Part shown: positions 52,721 to 60,058 of the stretch, piece after piece | Position numbering within the stretch: the stretch's first letter is position 1 | How the letters are laid out: each line of letters begins with the position of its first letter | Assembly: GCA_963782055.1 (NCBI GenBank) | Contig: CAWAIF010000003.1 | Location: 6,624,001 to 6,688,000, forward strand | Length of the DNA: 64,000 nucleotides | Origin: an uncultured delta proteobacterium | GTDB lineage: Bacteria; Myxococcota_A; Polyangia; Polyangiales; Polyangiaceae | Reading direction: 5' to 3' | The notes under the pieces: generated by a model | Told to the model about the DNA's origin: nothing | Seen by the model: only the letters and a program-made list of their open reading frames with translations | Database searches by the model: none | Made by a program: the position numbers and the translations under genes

Positions 52721-53407
52721 TCACTCGACGGGGACGCGCGCCTTGGCCAGCGAGCGCAGCACGTCACCGAAGAGGCGCACGGGGATGCGGCCGATCGTGA
52801 CGTGGCCACCGGCGTAGTGAACGGTAACCTCCTTCGCCGACGCAGGGACGTGCTTGACGATCTCCGTCACGACAGGGCTGCGCTTCGCCCCGGTCGCGCC
52901 CGCCTTGCGCACCTTCTTCGTCGCGTCCCGGAGCTGCGCCACGGTCGCGTCGGCGAAGGGCACCGTCCCGGCGCCCCTTGGGATCCGGAGCTTGCCGAAG
53001 TCCACGGGGATGCGGCCGCTGGCCGGCTTGCCGTGCTTCGCCTCGAGGTAGTCGACGACCGCGTCGATCTTGCTGGCGCCGTAGCGCTTCTCCTCGTCGG
53101 GCGAGGCGTACCTCGCCACGCGCGCGCTCCGCAGCACGTTGCGCACCGTCTCGTTCGGGAGGTACTTCCTCACGAAGTCGCCGACGGTGGAGACCCCGCC
53201 GGCGAGGTAGAGCGGCGGGTTGTGGTCCAGGATCTCGCCGACGGCCTCGTACTTGCGGTCGAAGGCGAACGCGTCCTCGCGGTCGGCGCGCCGGAGGGCC
53301 GAGAGGGACGCAGCCCAGGCCTTCTTGAGGGACTGGTCCACCTTCACGGCGACGGTGCGCTGGACAGGGCGTCGGGGCTTCGCGGCCCTCCTCTTCGTGG
53401 TCGTCAT
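52721..53407 (-). CDS. Basic putative DNA-binding protein (DUF3102/ParB-HTH-like, tentative)
   Basis: Lys/Arg-rich. LYLAGGVSTVGDFVRKYL..ETVRNVLRSARVARY resembles the F..F....L...R.A...M.VA HTH pattern. Confidence 0.65.
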   Translation of the reverse strand: MTTTKRRAAKPRRPVQRTVAVKVDQSLKKAWAASLSALRRADREDAFAFDRKYEAVGEILDHNPPLYLAGGVSTVGDFVRKYLPNETVRNVLRSARVARYASPDEEKRYGASKIDAVVDYLEAKHGKPASGRIPVDFGKLRIPRGAGTVPFADATVAQLRDATKKVRKAGATGAKRSPVVTEIVKHVPASAKEVTVHYAGGHVTIGRIPVRLFGDVLRSLAKARVPVE

Positions 53408-53449
53408 GCGGCGGAGTGTCGCGAGAAGCGCCGCTCGGGGCAAGCCCCC

Positions 53450-53493
53450 GATCGCGCTCACGCCAGCGCTCGCATTCGCTGATCGCGATCAGC
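53450..53493. promoter_or_regulatory. Putative enhancer (UAS) pair 1
   Basis: GATCGCGCTC at 53450 and GATCGCGATC at 53481 (inside the perfect palindrome GCTGATCGCGATCAGC); 31-bp spacing. Confidence 0.65.
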
Positions 53494-53555
53494 CCGCCGC
53501 CGCACCCGGCGACGACAAGCCCGCGAGAACACTGGGCGCCGGAGGCAAGCGCGGC

Positions 53556-53570
53556 TGGCGCCCAGGTTGC
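53556..53570 (+). promoter_or_regulatory. sigma54 promoter P1 (DUF2130-kinase-activator genes)
   Basis: CTGGCGCCCAGGTTGCA; exact GG-N10-GC with TTGC. Confidence 0.7.
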
Positions 53571-53664
53571 AACCGGTGCTTGCGGCGCCCTCGCGCCGGC
53601 CCCCCCCCGTGGGGGGGGCAGCCAACCACGCGGCCGATGTCCGCGTGCTTCCCAGGAGCTTGCC

Positions 53665-55030
53665 ATGAAGAACGAACACCAAGCAATGACGACGCCGATT
53701 CGATGCCCGAAGTGTGGAGCCGAGCTCGGGCTCGACGCCGTGATCCGCGCTCGAGATCGCCCGCGACATGGAAGGGCAGCTCGCCGAGCAGCGGAAGGCG
53801 GCCGCAGCCACGGAGGCCGAGCTCCTCCGCCGCCGACGTACGATGGAGGAGAGGGAACAGGAGATGCTCCTCGACATGGAGCGACGTCTCCACGAGAAGA
53901 CCGAGGCGATCCGCGCGCAGGAGGCGAAGGTCGCCGTCGAGCGGGCGCGACGCGACGCGGAACAAGGGATGCAGGAGAAGAACCGCGAGCTGGCCGAGAT
54001 GCAGGCTCGTCTTCGTGGCGCCAATGCCAAGGAGGCCGACCTGCTCCGGCGTGAGCGGCTCGTCATCCAGCGTGAGGAGCAGAACACGCTGGAGGTGGAA
54101 CGCCGGATCGCAGAGGAGATGCAGCGGGTTCGCAAAGAGCAGGCGGAGGCGGCGGAGCAGCGTCAGGCGCGGGAGCGCGACGAGCGCGCGCTCCGTGAGG
54201 AGGAGGACCGGCAGCAGAAGGCGCTCCTCGAGAAGAAGATCGTCGAGCTGGAGCACCAGCTGCGCAACGGCCCGAACCACGTGCATGGGGAAGCGCAGGA
54301 GGTACTGCTCCAGTCCGCACTCGCGCAAGAGTGGCCCCACGACGCCGTGCGCGACGTGCCGAAGGGTGTCGCCGGCGCCGACGTCCTGCATACGGTCCGC
54401 GGTCCCCATGGTGAGGACAGCGGCACGATCGTCTGGGAGAGCAAGCGGACGAAGGAATGGTCCAGGGCGTGGATCAGCAAGGTGCGACGCGATCAGACCG
54501 CGGCTGGCGCGTCGCTCGCCGTCATCGTCACCCGTGCGCTGCCGGCTGGCATCCGTGGCTTCGGGTCCCACGAGGGCGTGTGGGTGTGCGAGTGGCCGTA
54601 CGCGGTGGCGCTCGGTGCGGCGTTGCGCGCGGGCCTCGTGGAGCTGTCTAGTGCCAGGCGCGCGGCGGAAGGTCGGGGAGAGAAGACCCAGGTGATGTAC
54701 GAGTACCTCACCGGGCCTGAGTTCAAGAACAGGGTGGAGGGATTGCTCGATGCGTTCAGGGAGTTGAAACACGACCTCGAGTCGGAACGACAAGCCACCG
54801 AGAGGCGCTGGGCGCGTCAGGATCGCCTGCTCCAGCGCGCCAGCACCAACGTCGTCACGTTCTGTGGGGACATCGACGGCATCTTGGGGGCACGCCTTGT
54901 CGGCAAGCACCGGGACGCGCTCGCCAGCGGTGATGAGGGAACCCCGCGTACCCCGTCGGCGAAGCTCCTCCCCCGCTCGAGCGCAGCGCTCGTGGCACGG
55001 CCGCCGCGACGCCGGAAGCTCGCCCGCTGA
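53665..55030 (+). CDS. DUF2130-like protein (CxxC, coiled coil, restriction-endonuclease-like C-terminus); frameshifted at ~53752 in this sequence
   Basis: AGGAG RBS; IRCPKCG; GEAQEV.LQ..L...WPHD.V.DV.KG..GADV; GTIVWESKRTKEWS..WI.K; MYEYLTGPEF. Removing one base gives ...VIRAEIARDMEGQL... Confidence 0.82.
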
Positions 55031-55172
55031 TCGATGACGACGCCCTCGTGAGCCATCATGCCGAGTGACGAACGCGGCCAGCCCAGCCACTCGACGCTGG
55101 AGCTGGCCGCGTGGGCTCGTCTTTGGAGCCGTGGATGTGCATTGCACGCTATCCTTCCCGGTCGTGGATCGC

Positions 55173-56714
55173 ATGGGTTGGGTCGGCGCGACCCTCGAGG
55201 GCAAGTACCGGATCGACGCCCTCGTCGGCGAGGGCGGCTTCGGTTGCGTCTACCGCGCAGTGCACCTGCGGCTCGGCACGCCGGTCGCGGTGAAGTTCCT
55301 GCGGCCGGAGCTCGCGCTCGGCTCCGGCGACGCGGCGAAGTTCCTTCGTCGCTTCGAACGCGAGGCGCGAACGCTCCAGAACCTCTCGCGTGCCACGACG
55401 GGCGTGGTGCAGGCGCACGACTTCGGCGTGGCCACGTCGCCCCGCGGCGAGGAGACGGCATACCTCGTGATGGAATGGCTGGAGGGACACACGCTGTCGG
55501 ACGAGCTCGCCGCGAGACCGCGGCGCTCGCTGACAGACGCCCTCGAGCTGCTGTCACCGGTGCTCGACGCGCTCGCGGTGGCGCACGACATGGGCATCGC
55601 ACACCGCGATCTGAAGCCCGCCAACCTGATGGTGTGCCGTGTCGGCGGCCGCCCCACGGTGAAGGTGCTGGACTTCGGCATCGCGCAGGTCCTGGGGCCG
55701 GAGCACGAGGCCACGTGGATCGGCGTCGGCGGCAACAACACGCGAGTCTTCTCCCTGGCGCACGGCGCGCCGGAGCAGTTCGATCCCGGCCTCGGTCCCA
55801 CGGGCCCGTGGACCGATGTCTACGCGGTGGGCCTCCTGATCCTCCAGCTCGTCGACGGTGAGCACCCCTACGCCGGCGACACGTACGCGGAGCTGCGCGC
55901 CCAGGCGCTCGACCTGGAGCGACGCCCGGCCCTTCGATCCGACCGGAGCATCGACGACGTGATGCGGCGAGTGCTCGCCGTCGACTGGCGGAATCGGCCG
56001 AGGACTGCCGGGGAGCTGCGCGTCGAGCTGACGCGGGGCGAGGGCGAGGACGACCTGGGCCCGCCCACCTCCAGGATGCCGTCCGCGCCGGTCGCCCCGA
56101 CCCCGGCCGCGCCCGTCCCGCCTGCGCTCCTCGTACCTGCTCGCACCTCATCGAGTCACCCGCTCTGGACAATCGTCGCCGTCGGCGCCGGTATTGTTTT
56201 CCTCCTCCTCGCCGTCGGTGGCGCGATGGCCGCCAGGCTGCTCCTTCAAGGTGGGCGAACGACCAGCTCGGCTCGCGATGCCGCGCCGACGAGGGAGACG
56301 CAGGCTCGCGACGTGCTGAAGCAATGGAACGACGCCGAGGACAGGCACGACATCCCCGAACTTGAGTCCATGTACGCGGACCGCGTCCACTTCTACCATG
56401 CAGATCTCACCCCCCAGCAGTGCGGCGACAAGCTGCGAGGCCTGTATCGTGCCTACCCCGGCTTTATTCAGCAGGTCCATTGGGACACGGTCACGGTCGA
56501 GTCGCTGGAGAGCTCCGCCGGGGCGCGCGTGTCGTTCGACAAGACCTACCCGACGAAGACCGGCGTCAGCACCGTGCGCGGGTACCTCGTCCTGGACGGC
56601 GAGATGAGGATCGTCGAGGAGAGCGACGCGAGGACGGATTCTGGTGCTCGATCCGACGGGCTCGAGGGACCACCGTCGGTAGAAGCCGGCGCCACGCAGG
56701 CGGCCATGCGCTAG
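55173..56714 (+). CDS. Membrane Ser/Thr kinase with an extracytoplasmic NTF2/SnoaL-like domain
   Basis: GEGGFGCVY, VAVK, HRDLKPAN, DFG and GAPEQ motifs; TM IVAVGAGIVFLLLAV; C-terminal VLKQWNDA...YADRVHFY (fold tentative). Confidence 0.88.
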   Translation: MGWVGATLEGKYRIDALVGEGGFGCVYRAVHLRLGTPVAVKFLRPELALGSGDAAKFLRRFEREARTLQNLSRATTGVVQAHDFGVATSPRGEETAYLVMEWLEGHTLSDELAARPRRSLTDALELLSPVLDALAVAHDMGIAHRDLKPANLMVCRVGGRPTVKVLDFGIAQVLGPEHEATWIGVGGNNTRVFSLAHGAPEQFDPGLGPTGPWTDVYAVGLLILQLVDGEHPYAGDTYAELRAQALDLERRPALRSDRSIDDVMRRVLAVDWRNRPRTAGELRVELTRGEGEDDLGPPTSRMPSAPVAPTPAAPVPPALLVPARTSSSHPLWTIVAVGAGIVFLLLAVGGAMAARLLLQGGRTTSSARDAAPTRETQARDVLKQWNDAEDRHDIPELESMYADRVHFYHADLTPQQCGDKLRGLYRAYPGFIQQVHWDTVTVESLESSAGARVSFDKTYPTKTGVSTVRGYLVLDGEMRIVEESDARTDSGARSDGLEGPPSVEAGATQAAMR

Positions 56715-56723
56715 CATGGCCGG

Positions 56724-58070
56724 ATGGGGACCGAGAAGCCTACGGAGGAGCTCACGGGGCCCGCGAAGGGCCCCGCCGGCGCCGGACCTCCGGGACTGAT
56801 CATGGTGTATCCGGAGAAGCGCGCACTCCGGGTGCCCATCGACGAGCCGTGCGGCCGCGACTGGCTCGGTGCCGAGGGCACCAAGGCTTCTCGGCGCCAC
56901 ATCGTCTTCACCAAGGCGGGCAGCCGGCTGACCGTCGAGGATGTCGGCTCGCGTAATGGTACGTGGGTCGACGGAGAGCGGCTCCTCGAGGGGCAACCCG
57001 TTGACCTGGAGAATGGTTCGATCCTGCGCATCGGCGCCGCAGTGCTCGTGTACCGAAGCTCCTTCGGCCTCCCTTACGAACCCGACGCGCCGCTTCAGGT
57101 CCGCGAGGGCCCTTTCCGCGAGCTGATGAGCCCTTTCGGAATGCGTCGCGCCAGAACCGAGATCGATGCCATCGTGTCTCAGTCTCCGACTCCCAGGAGC
57201 ATCCTCATCGAGGGCGAATCGGGCACCGGCAAGGAGTTCATCGCGCGGTATCTCGCCGAGCGCTTGCACCCCGGGTGCCCCTACCTCCCAGTCAACGTCG
57301 CCGCCATCTCGAAGGAGCTGTTCGAAGCGGAGCTGTTCGGGTACGTCCCGGGAGCGTTCTCCGGCGCGCGCGCCGGAGGAAGGAAGGGATACGTCGAGGA
57401 GTGCAACGGCGGCACCCTGTTCCTGGATGAGATCGGAGAGCTTCCCGTCCAGGCGCAGGCGAAGCTGCTCCGCTTCCTCGACAGCGGCGCGTTCCTTCGC
57501 GTGGGCGAGACCAAGGTCCAGACGGCGAACGTGCTCGTCATGGCGGCGACGAATCGAACCCTCGACGACGAGGTCCGCGAGAAGAGGTTCAAGCACGACG
57601 TGCGCGCGCGCTTCCAAGCGTATCTGAGGCTCCCGCCGCTTCGCGACCGACCGGAGGACATCTGGGACATCGCCCGCACCGCGATGCCTGAAACGCCCGC
57701 GGAGGCCCAGGCCGTCGAACGGCTCCTGCTCGAGAGGTGGGGGAAGGGCAACATCCGGGAGCTCCTCAGCACAGTCTCGCGGAGCGTGGCGTCGCAACGG
57801 GCGTCCTTCCCGGGTGTGCCGCCCGCTCTTGCACATTGGGCCGTCGAGCAGACCCTCGCTCTGGCACACGGAGCTGTGGAGCAGACCGCCGATCCAGCAA
57901 GACGCGCGTCCCTGCTCACCCCCGACCGGATCCGACAGGCGCTCGCAGACGCGGGCCAGAACATCACCCACGCCGCCCAACGGCTCTCCACGCCGGGGCA
58001 CACTGTCACCATTGGGACGCTCCGCAGGCGAATGAAAGAGTTCGGGATCAAGCGGGAGAGCTCGGGCTGA
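56724..58070 (+). CDS. FHA-domain sigma54 enhancer-binding protein
   Basis: FHA GR..ASRRH..DVGSRNGTWV; Walker A GESGTGKE; ELFG..PGAFSGA; LFLDEIGEL; GNIREL; Fis-type HTH. Confidence 0.92.
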   Translation: MGTEKPTEELTGPAKGPAGAGPPGLIMVYPEKRALRVPIDEPCGRDWLGAEGTKASRRHIVFTKAGSRLTVEDVGSRNGTWVDGERLLEGQPVDLENGSILRIGAAVLVYRSSFGLPYEPDAPLQVREGPFRELMSPFGMRRARTEIDAIVSQSPTPRSILIEGESGTGKEFIARYLAERLHPGCPYLPVNVAAISKELFEAELFGYVPGAFSGARAGGRKGYVEECNGGTLFLDEIGELPVQAQAKLLRFLDSGAFLRVGETKVQTANVLVMAATNRTLDDEVREKRFKHDVRARFQAYLRLPPLRDRPEDIWDIARTAMPETPAEAQAVERLLLERWGKGNIRELLSTVSRSVASQRASFPGVPPALAHWAVEQTLALAHGAVEQTADPARRASLLTPDRIRQALADAGQNITHAAQRLSTPGHTVTIGTLRRRMKEFGIKRESSG

Positions 58071-58111
58071 TCGCGATCGCCAACGCGGGCGGTCTAGCTG
58101 ATCGCGATCGG
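58066..58111. promoter_or_regulatory. Putative enhancer (UAS) pair 2
   Basis: GCTGATCGCGATCG twice, with GATCGCGATC starting at 58069 and 58100; 31-bp spacing. Confidence 0.7.
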
Positions 58112-58175
58112 TGACCACGACCCCGCCCATGACGCAACCTGTCGGAACTCCTCGTCATCGTCCCGTCCGGTCGCG

Positions 58176-58190
58176 TGGCACGCGCCGTGT
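58176..58190 (+). promoter_or_regulatory. sigma54 promoter P2 (TPR-HicA-peptide operon)
   Basis: TGGCACGCGCCGTGT: consensus -24 TGGCACG, variant -12 (TGT instead of TGC). Confidence 0.5.
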
Positions 58191-58203
58191 ACTGGGTCGC
58201 GGC

Positions 58204-58500
58204 ATGACCTCGTCAGCCGCTTCCCGTCGCCTCACTCTTCACGACCAGATCCTGCTGGCCCTCCGCGCCGACGACCACGACGCGGCGCGCGTCCTCCTGC
58301 GCCGCATGCTGCTCCTGCTACCGCTCGAGGACTGCCGCGCGCGGGCCGACGTGCTCGTCACGCTCGCCTATGTCGCCATCGAGGGAGGGCGCGCGCAGGA
58401 AGGCCGCGCCATAGCGAACCTTGCCCTCGCGCTCGTTCCCGGCCACGCCCTGGCCGAACGCGAGCTGGAGCGCGCCACCCGCGGCGTGGGCATCCGATGA
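58204..58500 (+). CDS. Small TPR-like helical protein
   Basis: ADVLVTLAYVAIEGGRAQEGRAIANLALALVPGHALA is TPR-like; ATGA-coupled to the next ORF. Confidence 0.6.
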   Translation: MTSSAASRRLTLHDQILLALRADDHDAARVLLRRMLLLLPLEDCRARADVLVTLAYVAIEGGRAQEGRAIANLALALVPGHALAERELERATRGVGIR

Positions 58501-58973
58501 GCGGCCACGGAGATCCGAGAAGTTGGCGCGAGCTGCGCACCGAGCTCCGGAGCCTGGGCGCGCGCAGCGTGCGAACGAAGGGCTCTCACCAGGCCTGGAG
58601 GTTCGCGGACGGGGAGGTGTTCGTCCTGGTCGTCAACCACCTCTCCGACCCCGTACCCGGAGGCATCCTCGCGGAGTTTCGTCGCCTCAGGCGACGCCGC
58701 CTCGGACCTGCCCGCGAAGAGCCACCACCAGCCAGACACGCGAGAGCACAGTGCTCGGGCGGTCGATCCGGCAAGAAAGGAGAAGTGATCATGAGCAAGG
58801 GAAGCAGCGGCGGCAGAGGAGGTCGCGGTGGGCCGAAGGGCGCCGGTGGCCCGAAGGGCGCCGGTGGCCCGAAGGGCGGCAGCGGTCCCAAGGGCGGCCA
58901 GGCCCACGGCGGCAACTACCCGAGCACCACGGGAAACGCCTCCGGAGGCGGGCGAGGAAACACGCCGAGGTAG
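58497..58973 (+). CDS. HicA/YcfA-like toxin domain, in frame with the downstream Gly-rich peptide
   Basis: RELRTELRSLG...VRTKGSH..W......V....H....VP.GIL matches the HicA pattern including the GSH histidine. Confidence 0.65.
   Translation: MSGHGDPRSWRELRTELRSLGARSVRTKGSHQAWRFADGEVFVLVVNHLSDPVPGGILAEFRRLRRRRLGPAREEPPPARHARAQCSGGRSGKKGEVIMSKGSSGGRGGRGGPKGAGGPKGAGGPKGGSGPKGGQAHGGNYPSTTGNASGGGRGNTPR
58791..58973 (+). CDS. 60-aa Gly/Lys-rich microprotein with its own RBS
   Basis: AAAGGAG-N8-ATG; four 18-bp repeats (58827-58898, GGPKGA/G); ends GNYPSTTGNASGGGRGNTPR. Confidence 0.6.
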   Translation: MSKGSSGGRGGRGGPKGAGGPKGAGGPKGGSGPKGGQAHGGNYPSTTGNASGGGRGNTPR

Positions 58974-59016
58974 CGGCAGGCACGGCGGCATCCGGACTGG
59001 CGATGTCACCGTCCGC

Positions 59017-59066
59017 ACCGGGATCGGCAACGTCGCCGATTTTTCGGCAACGTTGCCGATCCCGGT
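59017..59066. repeat. Double palindrome, copy 2 (inverted relative to copy 1)
   Basis: ACCGGGATCGGCAACGTCGCCGA-TTTT-TCGGCAACGTTGCCGATCCCGGT. Confidence 0.85.
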
Positions 59067-59169
59067 ACGCCGTCTCCGTCTCGGATGCCGGGCGCGGCGC
59101 CCGCGTGCCAAACCATGAGGCGCCGTCGAACGCATTTCCGTCGTGGCGGGGACGCCCCATACTGAAAGC

Positions 59170-59480
59170 ATGACTGCCTAGGCGGTCCAGGCGCGAGCAG
59201 AGCCGATCGTCGTCTTCCGCAGCGTCAATCGTGACGGCGAGACGTACGCGCTCGAGCCGCGCTCGTTGGATCGGCTTCGGAAGGAGCTCGGCGCTGCCGT
59301 CCACGCTCGGCCTCGCATCTTCATCGCGCACGAGACGCGCGCAGACTACGAGCACATCCATGCCGCCATCGTCGAGCAGATCATCCAGTTGCTGACCGGC
59401 GTCACGGAGGAGCGGCTCCGCCCTCTCGGGGGCGTCATTTTCGGGATCCTGTGACCGAGCGGGATCTCCCACGGGCGTAG
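59170..59480 (+). pseudogene. ~100-aa hypothetical protein with TAG at codon 4 and a 1-nt deletion at ~59442 (pseudogene or read errors)
   Basis: MTA*AVQARAEPIVVFRSVNRDGETYALEPRSLDRL...LGGVIF, then RDPVTERDLPRA* in the shifted frame. Confidence 0.5.
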
Positions 59481-60058
59481 CTGGTGCTGCCGGTGGCGCC
59501 GCACCGAAGCCTCGATCGGCTTGTCCAACCGCACCCGGACCGCCGGCGATGGAGGGCAGCTGGTCGGGCCATTGATCCAGGTAGGCCGTGAGCGATGCCT
59601 CCCAGCCCGTGGCCTCGTGTTCGTTCAGGACCACCTCGAGTCCAAGGGCGTCGGTCTTCGCAGCATCGTCGGCGACCGGCCGCCTGCCCGGTCCCTCACG
59701 CGTCTTGCCGGCTTCGACGTAGGCATCGCGAAGCTTCGAGAGCTCCACCCGCGGCACGATCAAGAAGCGCCACTTCTCCCCGTGGCGCACGACCAGCATG
59801 AAGAAGAGCTCAATCGGCTGCGGTGCAGCGTAGCTGAGCCCGTGAAAGCGTGAACTTCGCCTTCACGCTGCCGCCGTTCGCCTCGCCTTCGGCAGTCTTC
59901 ACCTGCAGGCGCCAGGTCGTCTTGTCGTTGTCATCGATCACGAAGACGTCGTCGCCGACGTCGACCACGGGGACGGCGACATTCCACCCGCGGAGAAGGA
60001 GCTCCGACATCGCAAAGTACTCGCCTGCTCGTCCGAAGTGCGTCTTCTTGTCCGCCAT
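59435..60058 (-). pseudogene. PD-(D/E)XK-type nuclease-like protein; frameshifted at ~59827
   Basis: GRAGEYFAMSELLLRGWNV..P.VDVGDD...LQVKT; continues APQPIELFFMLVVR...FLIVPR after the shift. Confidence 0.65.

Follow-up and report, generated by a model that had tools for sequence, protein, structure and literature searches.

Paired palindromes in phase with predicted sigma54 promoters as the probable enhancer of an FHA-domain activator subfamily in Polyangiaceae

The window, the 64-kb stretch of DNA that was analysed (C3:6624001-6688000), belongs to a genome of 7.58 Mb (72% GC) whose homologs, by their names, indicate Polyangiaceae/Myxococcota, and carries two predicted sigma54 promoters, each preceded by a pair of short palindromes (Table 1). 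The first promoter faces a DUF2130 gene, of a family listed as PD-(D/E)XK in excerpts of PMC3424549, followed by genes for a membrane Ser/Thr kinase and an FHA-AAA+-HTH sigma54 activator (P0001); the second faces a 98-aa ORF and a HicA-like ORF. For the divergent ORF upstream of enhancer 1 no family was found in scans of its first 186 codons, and no sigma54 site faces it. The kinase domain is 61.5% identical to that of a paralogous kinase at C3:4.71 Mb, and the 98-aa ORF is 40% identical to a 97-aa gene that follows this enhancer in G457, a genome of the same genus. The Gly-rich peptide at the end of the HicA-like ORF (58791-58973) terminates in the motif PSTTGNxSGGGRxN. In L168 the first gene after the enhancer encodes a similar peptide (L168:4853-4990), and short Asn/Pro-rich peptides lie behind it in L286, L298 and L302. 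Further along, two near-identical palindromes, TCGGCAACGT(T/C)GCCGA, lie at a distance of 20 bp within a longer inverted repeat (59024-59059) and are a candidate second operator or hairpin. An ORF at 59170-59453 has an in-frame TAG at codon 4, representing a pseudogene or an assembly error, and a small PD-(D/E)XK nuclease gene (PDDEXK_5-like, below cut-off; 59810-60058, minus strand) lies at the right edge of the island. Several activator genes of this assembly look split, which makes indel errors plausible, the frame shift in the DUF2130 gene among them. PADLOC matches of the window kinase (PD-T4-6, mad6) and of the activator (RtcR) were discarded as generic domain matches that do not constitute defence evidence.

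Table 1. Features around the two enhancers, in window coordinates.
Feature	Position	Strand	Remarks
Divergent 229-aa ORF upstream of enhancer 1	52721..53407	-	No family match
Enhancer 1, distal site GATCGCGCTC	53450..53459	.	1 mismatch; imperfect palindrome
Enhancer 1, proximal site GATCGCGATC	53481..53490	.	Within perfect 16-bp palindrome 53478-53493
Predicted sigma54 promoter 1, TGGCGCCCAGGTTGCA	53556..53571	+	GG 53557, GG-N10-GC; start predicted ~53582
C-run/G-run hairpin in predicted 5' leader	53599..53619	+	RNA fold without shuffle control
DUF2130 gene, first of operon 1	53665..55030	+	Pfam; frame shifts near 53745-53750
Membrane Ser/Thr kinase	55173..56714	+	Pkinase, TM ~334-352, C-terminal SnoaL-like domain
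FHA-AAA+-HTH sigma54 activator P0001	56724..58070	+	Divergent subfamily member; GAFSGA; HTH with 5-residue insertion
Enhancer 2, distal site GATCGCGATC	58069..58078	.	Overlaps activator's TGA stop
Enhancer 2, proximal site GATCGCGATC	58100..58109	.	From sequence
Predicted sigma54 promoter 2, TGGCACGCGCCGTGTA	58176..58191	+	GG 58177, GG-N10-GT; start predicted ~58202
98-aa ORF, no known family	58204..58500	+	First gene behind promoter 2
HicA-like ORF (domain aa 10-60)	58497..58973	+	Runs in frame into Gly-rich peptide, own ATG at 58791

Promoter 1 has a GG-N10-GC element, and the −12 dinucleotide of promoter 2 is the non-consensus GT, a point absent from the initial annotation. The homologous promoter in G457 also deviates at −12 (TTGGA), at an in-phase position, and L338 shares GTGTA. 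As the predicted start of promoter 2 falls just before the ORF at 58204, a near-leaderless mRNA is predicted. The genome encodes rpoN, and a scan of 53200-59600 returned no sigma70 sites.

The initial annotation had placed both pairs and both GG elements correctly: the sites are 31 bp apart in each pair, and the proximal site lies 76 bp (promoter 1) or 77 bp (promoter 2) from the GG, as it claimed. Comparison of the flanks by blastn-short yielded matches of motif size only, with 21/65 positions identical in the site-to-promoter stretches and 10/21 in the inter-site spacers; such unrelated flanks support the earlier view that motif and spacing are independent of a recent duplication. The count of two GATC per full site was right for perfect pairs, which have four, but not for the site at 53450, which has one. 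The overlap of the distal site of enhancer 2 with the activator stop codon is also seen in L163. When the whole 7.6-Mb genome was scanned for GATCGCGATC pairs, allowing ≤1 mismatch in total and all 46 spacings of 15-60 bp, three were found, all at 31 bp, compared with 48 single 10-mers. Each of the three is followed by a −24/−12 element scoring 10/12 against the consensus, a score reached at 0.85% of 4000 random positions, so that the scan proposed earlier turned up no pair lacking a promoter (3/3). REP/HIP1-like dispersed repeats are present in many copies genome-wide, and an origin of this kind was rejected with only 48 single 10-mers and 3 pairs in 7.6 Mb. The third pair (C3:4709184; GG 66 bp away) precedes two lipoprotein-like genes, a kinase and the closest paralogous FHA activator.

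Among 401 genomes of the order, the exact pair with a gap of 19-23 occurred in 29, including this one, and a reversed-pattern control gave 0. Scoring of 29 loci showed a −24/−12 element (≥9/12) at 18/20 loci with pairs at 31/32 bp and at 0/9 with pairs at 30/33 bp. The subfamily activator was present at 11/20 motif-picked extended loci and was encoded in 17/19 other genomes with a 31/32-bp pair, compared with 0/9 genomes having 30/33-bp pairs only (one of which is the unpublished G123) and a base rate of 52/401; two of the 19 gave no subfamily match with four candidates scored per genome. In a held-out later set of 40 loci, taken from a longer list of pair positions, a promoter followed 20/22 perfect pairs and 7/18 one-mismatch pairs. 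The subfamily is nearly confined to one family of the order (50/190 genomes vs 1/210 in other families), and because the genomes are kin all of these counts overstate independence. A GTDB-wide wide-gap scan was uninformative, the matches listed being coding repeats and cyanobacterial words. One genome (G216:C140:1962-2088) has a tandem array of the 10-mer with a 29-bp period, and in 7 kb of sequence around it a subfamily activator was not found.

Loci were also chosen by the activator protein, and at 49 of these, pairs (≤2 mismatches) peaked at 31 bp (17) and 32 bp (4). A pair with a promoter was found at 19/49, or 26/49 at ≤3 mismatches, as against 0/79 generic activator loci (79 of the 80 loci from a metagenome scan with the alignment), a control lower in GC (54% vs 68%, with 18/79 above 65%). 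Among other activator loci of this genome, 1/40 has a pair at ≤3 mismatches. At 23/49 activator-picked loci no pair with a promoter was found within 7 kb, even at 3 mismatches, several of the contigs being short. A kinase adjoins the activator at 25/49 loci, a modest excess over the 24% of random 15-kb windows of this genome. G457 reproduces the window layout of kinase, activator and pair before the 97-aa gene, with a pair-to-promoter distance of 56 bp, two turns shorter than the window's 77, and again an odd −12 and almost no leader. Behind its homologous second promoter (L302:12484-14843) are genes for a GHKL/HSP90-like ATPase and a Holliday-resolvase-like endonuclease, a candidate defence operon, with an integrase-core transposase nearby.

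Pair-to-promoter distances for 45 promoters (46 minus one overlapping duplicate) cluster at 44-45, 54-57, 65-67 and 76-78 and then at 90-113 bp; 43/45 lie ≤2 bp from 45+10.8k, i.e. whole helical turns (45/55/66/77). The phasing was also seen when each target family was represented by a single promoter (n=21, R 0.75) and in the later set (R 0.79). Helical phasing is described as affecting the output of sigma54 promoters in the text available from PMC13682980. In the natural series of whole-turn spacers found here, evolution has left a clean trace of short-range dependence on the face of the helix. In the spacers, A/T content peaks at 17-18 and 27-30 bp ahead of the −24 element with a period of 10.25-10.5 bp, a signal matched in 0/1000 rotations; strong sigma54 sites elsewhere in this genome have a weaker A/T peak at 16-19, so the spacer signal may in part be general. 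The exact IHF consensus was found in 0/46 spacers, and IHF/HU genes are present in the genome.

The family consensus of the sites is GATCGCGATC, with T/A flanks in about half of them, and does not contain a 5' GCT. By sequence comparison the operator core is this 10-bp palindrome, with T/A favoured on either side, and not GCTGATCGCGATC; the initial proposal that the palindrome pair is the activator's operator gained support from the relatives, but its operator sequence was wrong. Most of the 63 subfamily members have [VI][STD]RGxLxR as their recognition helix. In G449, a canonical paralog adjoins a canonical GATCGCGATC pair, and a second paralog with an altered recognition helix (VDRNKIYR) adjoins a compensated pair of two GCTCGCGAGC sites with promoters at 53-54 and 78; in G432, a protein with IDRSKLQR that falls below the subfamily score cut goes with one single GCTCGCGAGC site. 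When 29 loci were searched de novo for pairs of variant palindromes centred on CGCG, one clear variant emerged (L342). This covariation of operator and HTH, from one full pair and one single site, is suggestive at this small n. It bears on the idea that the pair is bound by some other factor, or is a repeat or mobile end travelling with islands. Among the matches listed, coding repeats and cyanobacterial genomes often contain similar words, and the tandem array in G216 would also fit, but pairs at other spacings are not enriched, the reversed pattern is absent, and the pair is strictly in phase with −24/−12, linked to the subfamily and covaries with its HTH, so that we consider such an origin very unlikely. 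The pair is very probably the enhancer of a subfamily of FHA-domain sigma54 activators of Polyangiaceae, likely bound by two dimers.

Whether P0001 itself is the reader, as the initial annotation assumed for the HTH of 56724-58070, is a separate matter. The protein has FHA and sigma54 AAA+ domains (Pfam), and a structure search matched the fold of NtrC1/FleQ/PspF, an identification that went no further than sigma54 AAA+. Pfam HTH_8 is matched in the paralog and was not matched in P0001. It departs from the subfamily consensus at 16/108 conserved columns (median 4), and among 63 aligned members it alone has R430I (the recognition-helix Arg), R290K (arginine-finger region) and a 5-residue insertion in the HTH; consequently, it may fail to bind even though the motif is the family operator, and the intact paralog at C3:4712197-4713531, its closest paralog (44% identical), may be the reader. 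On this account the enhancer is real, P0001 is decaying and both window promoters are driven in trans. The paralog departs at only 4 of the conserved columns, the kinase domains of the two loci are more alike than the activators (61.5% vs 44%), and pairs with no activator adjoining them are found in genomes whose activator is encoded elsewhere. Nevertheless, the P0001 ORF is intact, Walker A/B, GAFSGA, sensor II, the FHA motifs (GR/SxxH/GSRNGT) and the Gly of the recognition helix are kept, the structure model retains the three-helix HTH (block pLDDT 81-95), and L294, which has L in place of the same recognition-helix Arg, still has a degenerate pair and a promoter beside its activator. We therefore regard decay of P0001 with control wholly in trans as possible but somewhat doubtful, and binding of the pair by P0001 itself as moderately probable; the intact paralog, which is under the same enhancer, probably also reads the window sites. 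The likely reader is a member of the subfamily, and P0001, being degenerate, need not be that member.

The genome also encodes an orphan Dam-family methyltransferase (C3:622758-623669, L300:8759-9670; DpnM E 1e-62, TIGR00571 above cut-off), with no nuclease found among 18 ORFs scanned at its locus. The gene, mostly in single copy, is present in 353/401 genomes of the order (a tally including four unpublished genomes), in 183/190 of the family and in only 1/31 of family f17, and has apparently been kept vertically, outside the gammaproteobacteria. Given its presence here and across the order, the operator sites are probably methylated, with GATC specificity assigned by homology. pap and agn43 exemplify Dam-controlled switches, and an enhancer in which GATC methylation gates activator binding, through hemimethylation or unmethylated incoming DNA, would suit both the order-wide enzyme and the four GATC of a perfect pair. 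It sits poorly with the GATC-free variant pair GCTCGCGAGC, with changes in distal sites that often break a GATC, with G185, which has activator and pair and no Dam match to this query, and with a genomic GATC observed/expected ratio of 0.88, i.e. no special enrichment; moreover, the near-universal presence of Dam leaves no correlation to test. Such a switch seems improbable, and a regulatory role of methylation at the operator is unsupported.

From the arrangement of motif, promoters and genes we infer a pathway in which the membrane Ser/Thr kinase adjoining the activator would sense an outside signal and present a phosphothreonine that the activator's FHA domain would engage. A pair of activator dimers, bound to one face of the DNA at a distance of three turns, would then nucleate the AAA+ ring, and the short, intrinsically bent spacer, with its phased A/T and whole-turn length, would bring the ring to sigma54-RNA polymerase. 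The DUF2130-kinase-activator operon would be under promoter 1, giving positive feedback, and promoter 2 would drive the 98-aa and HicA-like genes.

Multiple enhancers are common, and two suffice for assembly of the NtrC oligomer, according to the portion of PMC2831303 consulted. Promoters of the NtrC/NorR/DmpR type likewise have tandem palindromic sites upstream of −24/−12; what differs here is a new operator sequence, phased A/T in place of the exact IHF consensus, and a shorter distance, often only 45-66 bp, between the proximal site and the GG. Enhancer distances are given as 80-150 bp in a passage of PMC7910581 and as 100-250 bp in one of PMC6615313. FHA-domain EBPs of Myxococcus xanthus share the FHA-AAA+-HTH architecture next to Ser/Thr kinases, and differ from the present subfamily in that the latter is nearly confined to one family and now has a predicted operator and regulon. 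Their linkage to kinases was reportedly described by Jelsbak in 2005. The Nla28 regulon of M. xanthus is alike in having a myxobacterial EBP, tandem sites and a small regulon, while the Nla28 input domain differs from that of the FHA subfamily. Its half-site, CT(C/G)CG(C/G)AG in an excerpt of PMC7910581, does not match GATCGCGATC.

The gene content behind the pair is varied. Of the 45 promoters, 15 stand before the gene of a conserved coiled-coil protein that precedes the activator; other targets are lipoproteins, epimerases, short low-complexity peptides and candidate defence genes, PADLOC having been run on 61 of 102 listed downstream ORFs. Seven viperins lie behind the pair (L272, L273, L279, L286, L297, L311 and L320), and a CBASS operon, in which a CHAT-SAVED effector lies between two cyclase genes, directly follows the enhancer in G299 (L166:5383-9740). 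When viperins were picked independently, 19 genes were found in 17/251 genomes, 18 with upstream DNA, and 9/18 family viperin genes had a pair and promoter (8 canonical at ≤3 mismatches, 1 variant), four of them from one genus. No viperin was found in this genome. In G435 (L312:4031-6901), vWA-like gene pieces without a family match at the thresholds used lie behind the enhancer; by eye we take them to resemble TerY.

CapH and RtcR are among the regulators of anti-phage systems, as are WYL/BrxR/CapW proteins in the part of PMC9122601 that was available. The system described here resembles these in that defence genes such as CBASS have their own transcription factor next to them, but the known regulators are mostly ligand- or damage-sensing repressors, whereas here a kinase/FHA-type sigma54 activator would be involved, with its predicted operator in front of viperin and CBASS genes, in trans as well. 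Neither sigma54 control of viperin or CBASS nor this operator was found in the literature searched, which left subscription journals largely outside. As the window targets are uncharacterised (nuclease-like DUF2130, HicA-like), the defence claim rests on the relatives. We would give even chances to the proposal that the pair serves an inducible immune regulon of Polyangiaceae as its cis-element, with signalling from membrane kinase to FHA-sigma54 activator to viperin, CBASS and other island genes. No published binding site for FHA-bEBPs was found in the literature searched, and operator, promoter geometry and regulon are now testable for this class. The pair in front of viperin and CBASS suggests that anti-phage defence is induced by a kinase signal in a sigma54-dependent manner, which, if true, would be a bacterial analogue of the receptor-kinase induction of interferon-stimulated genes.
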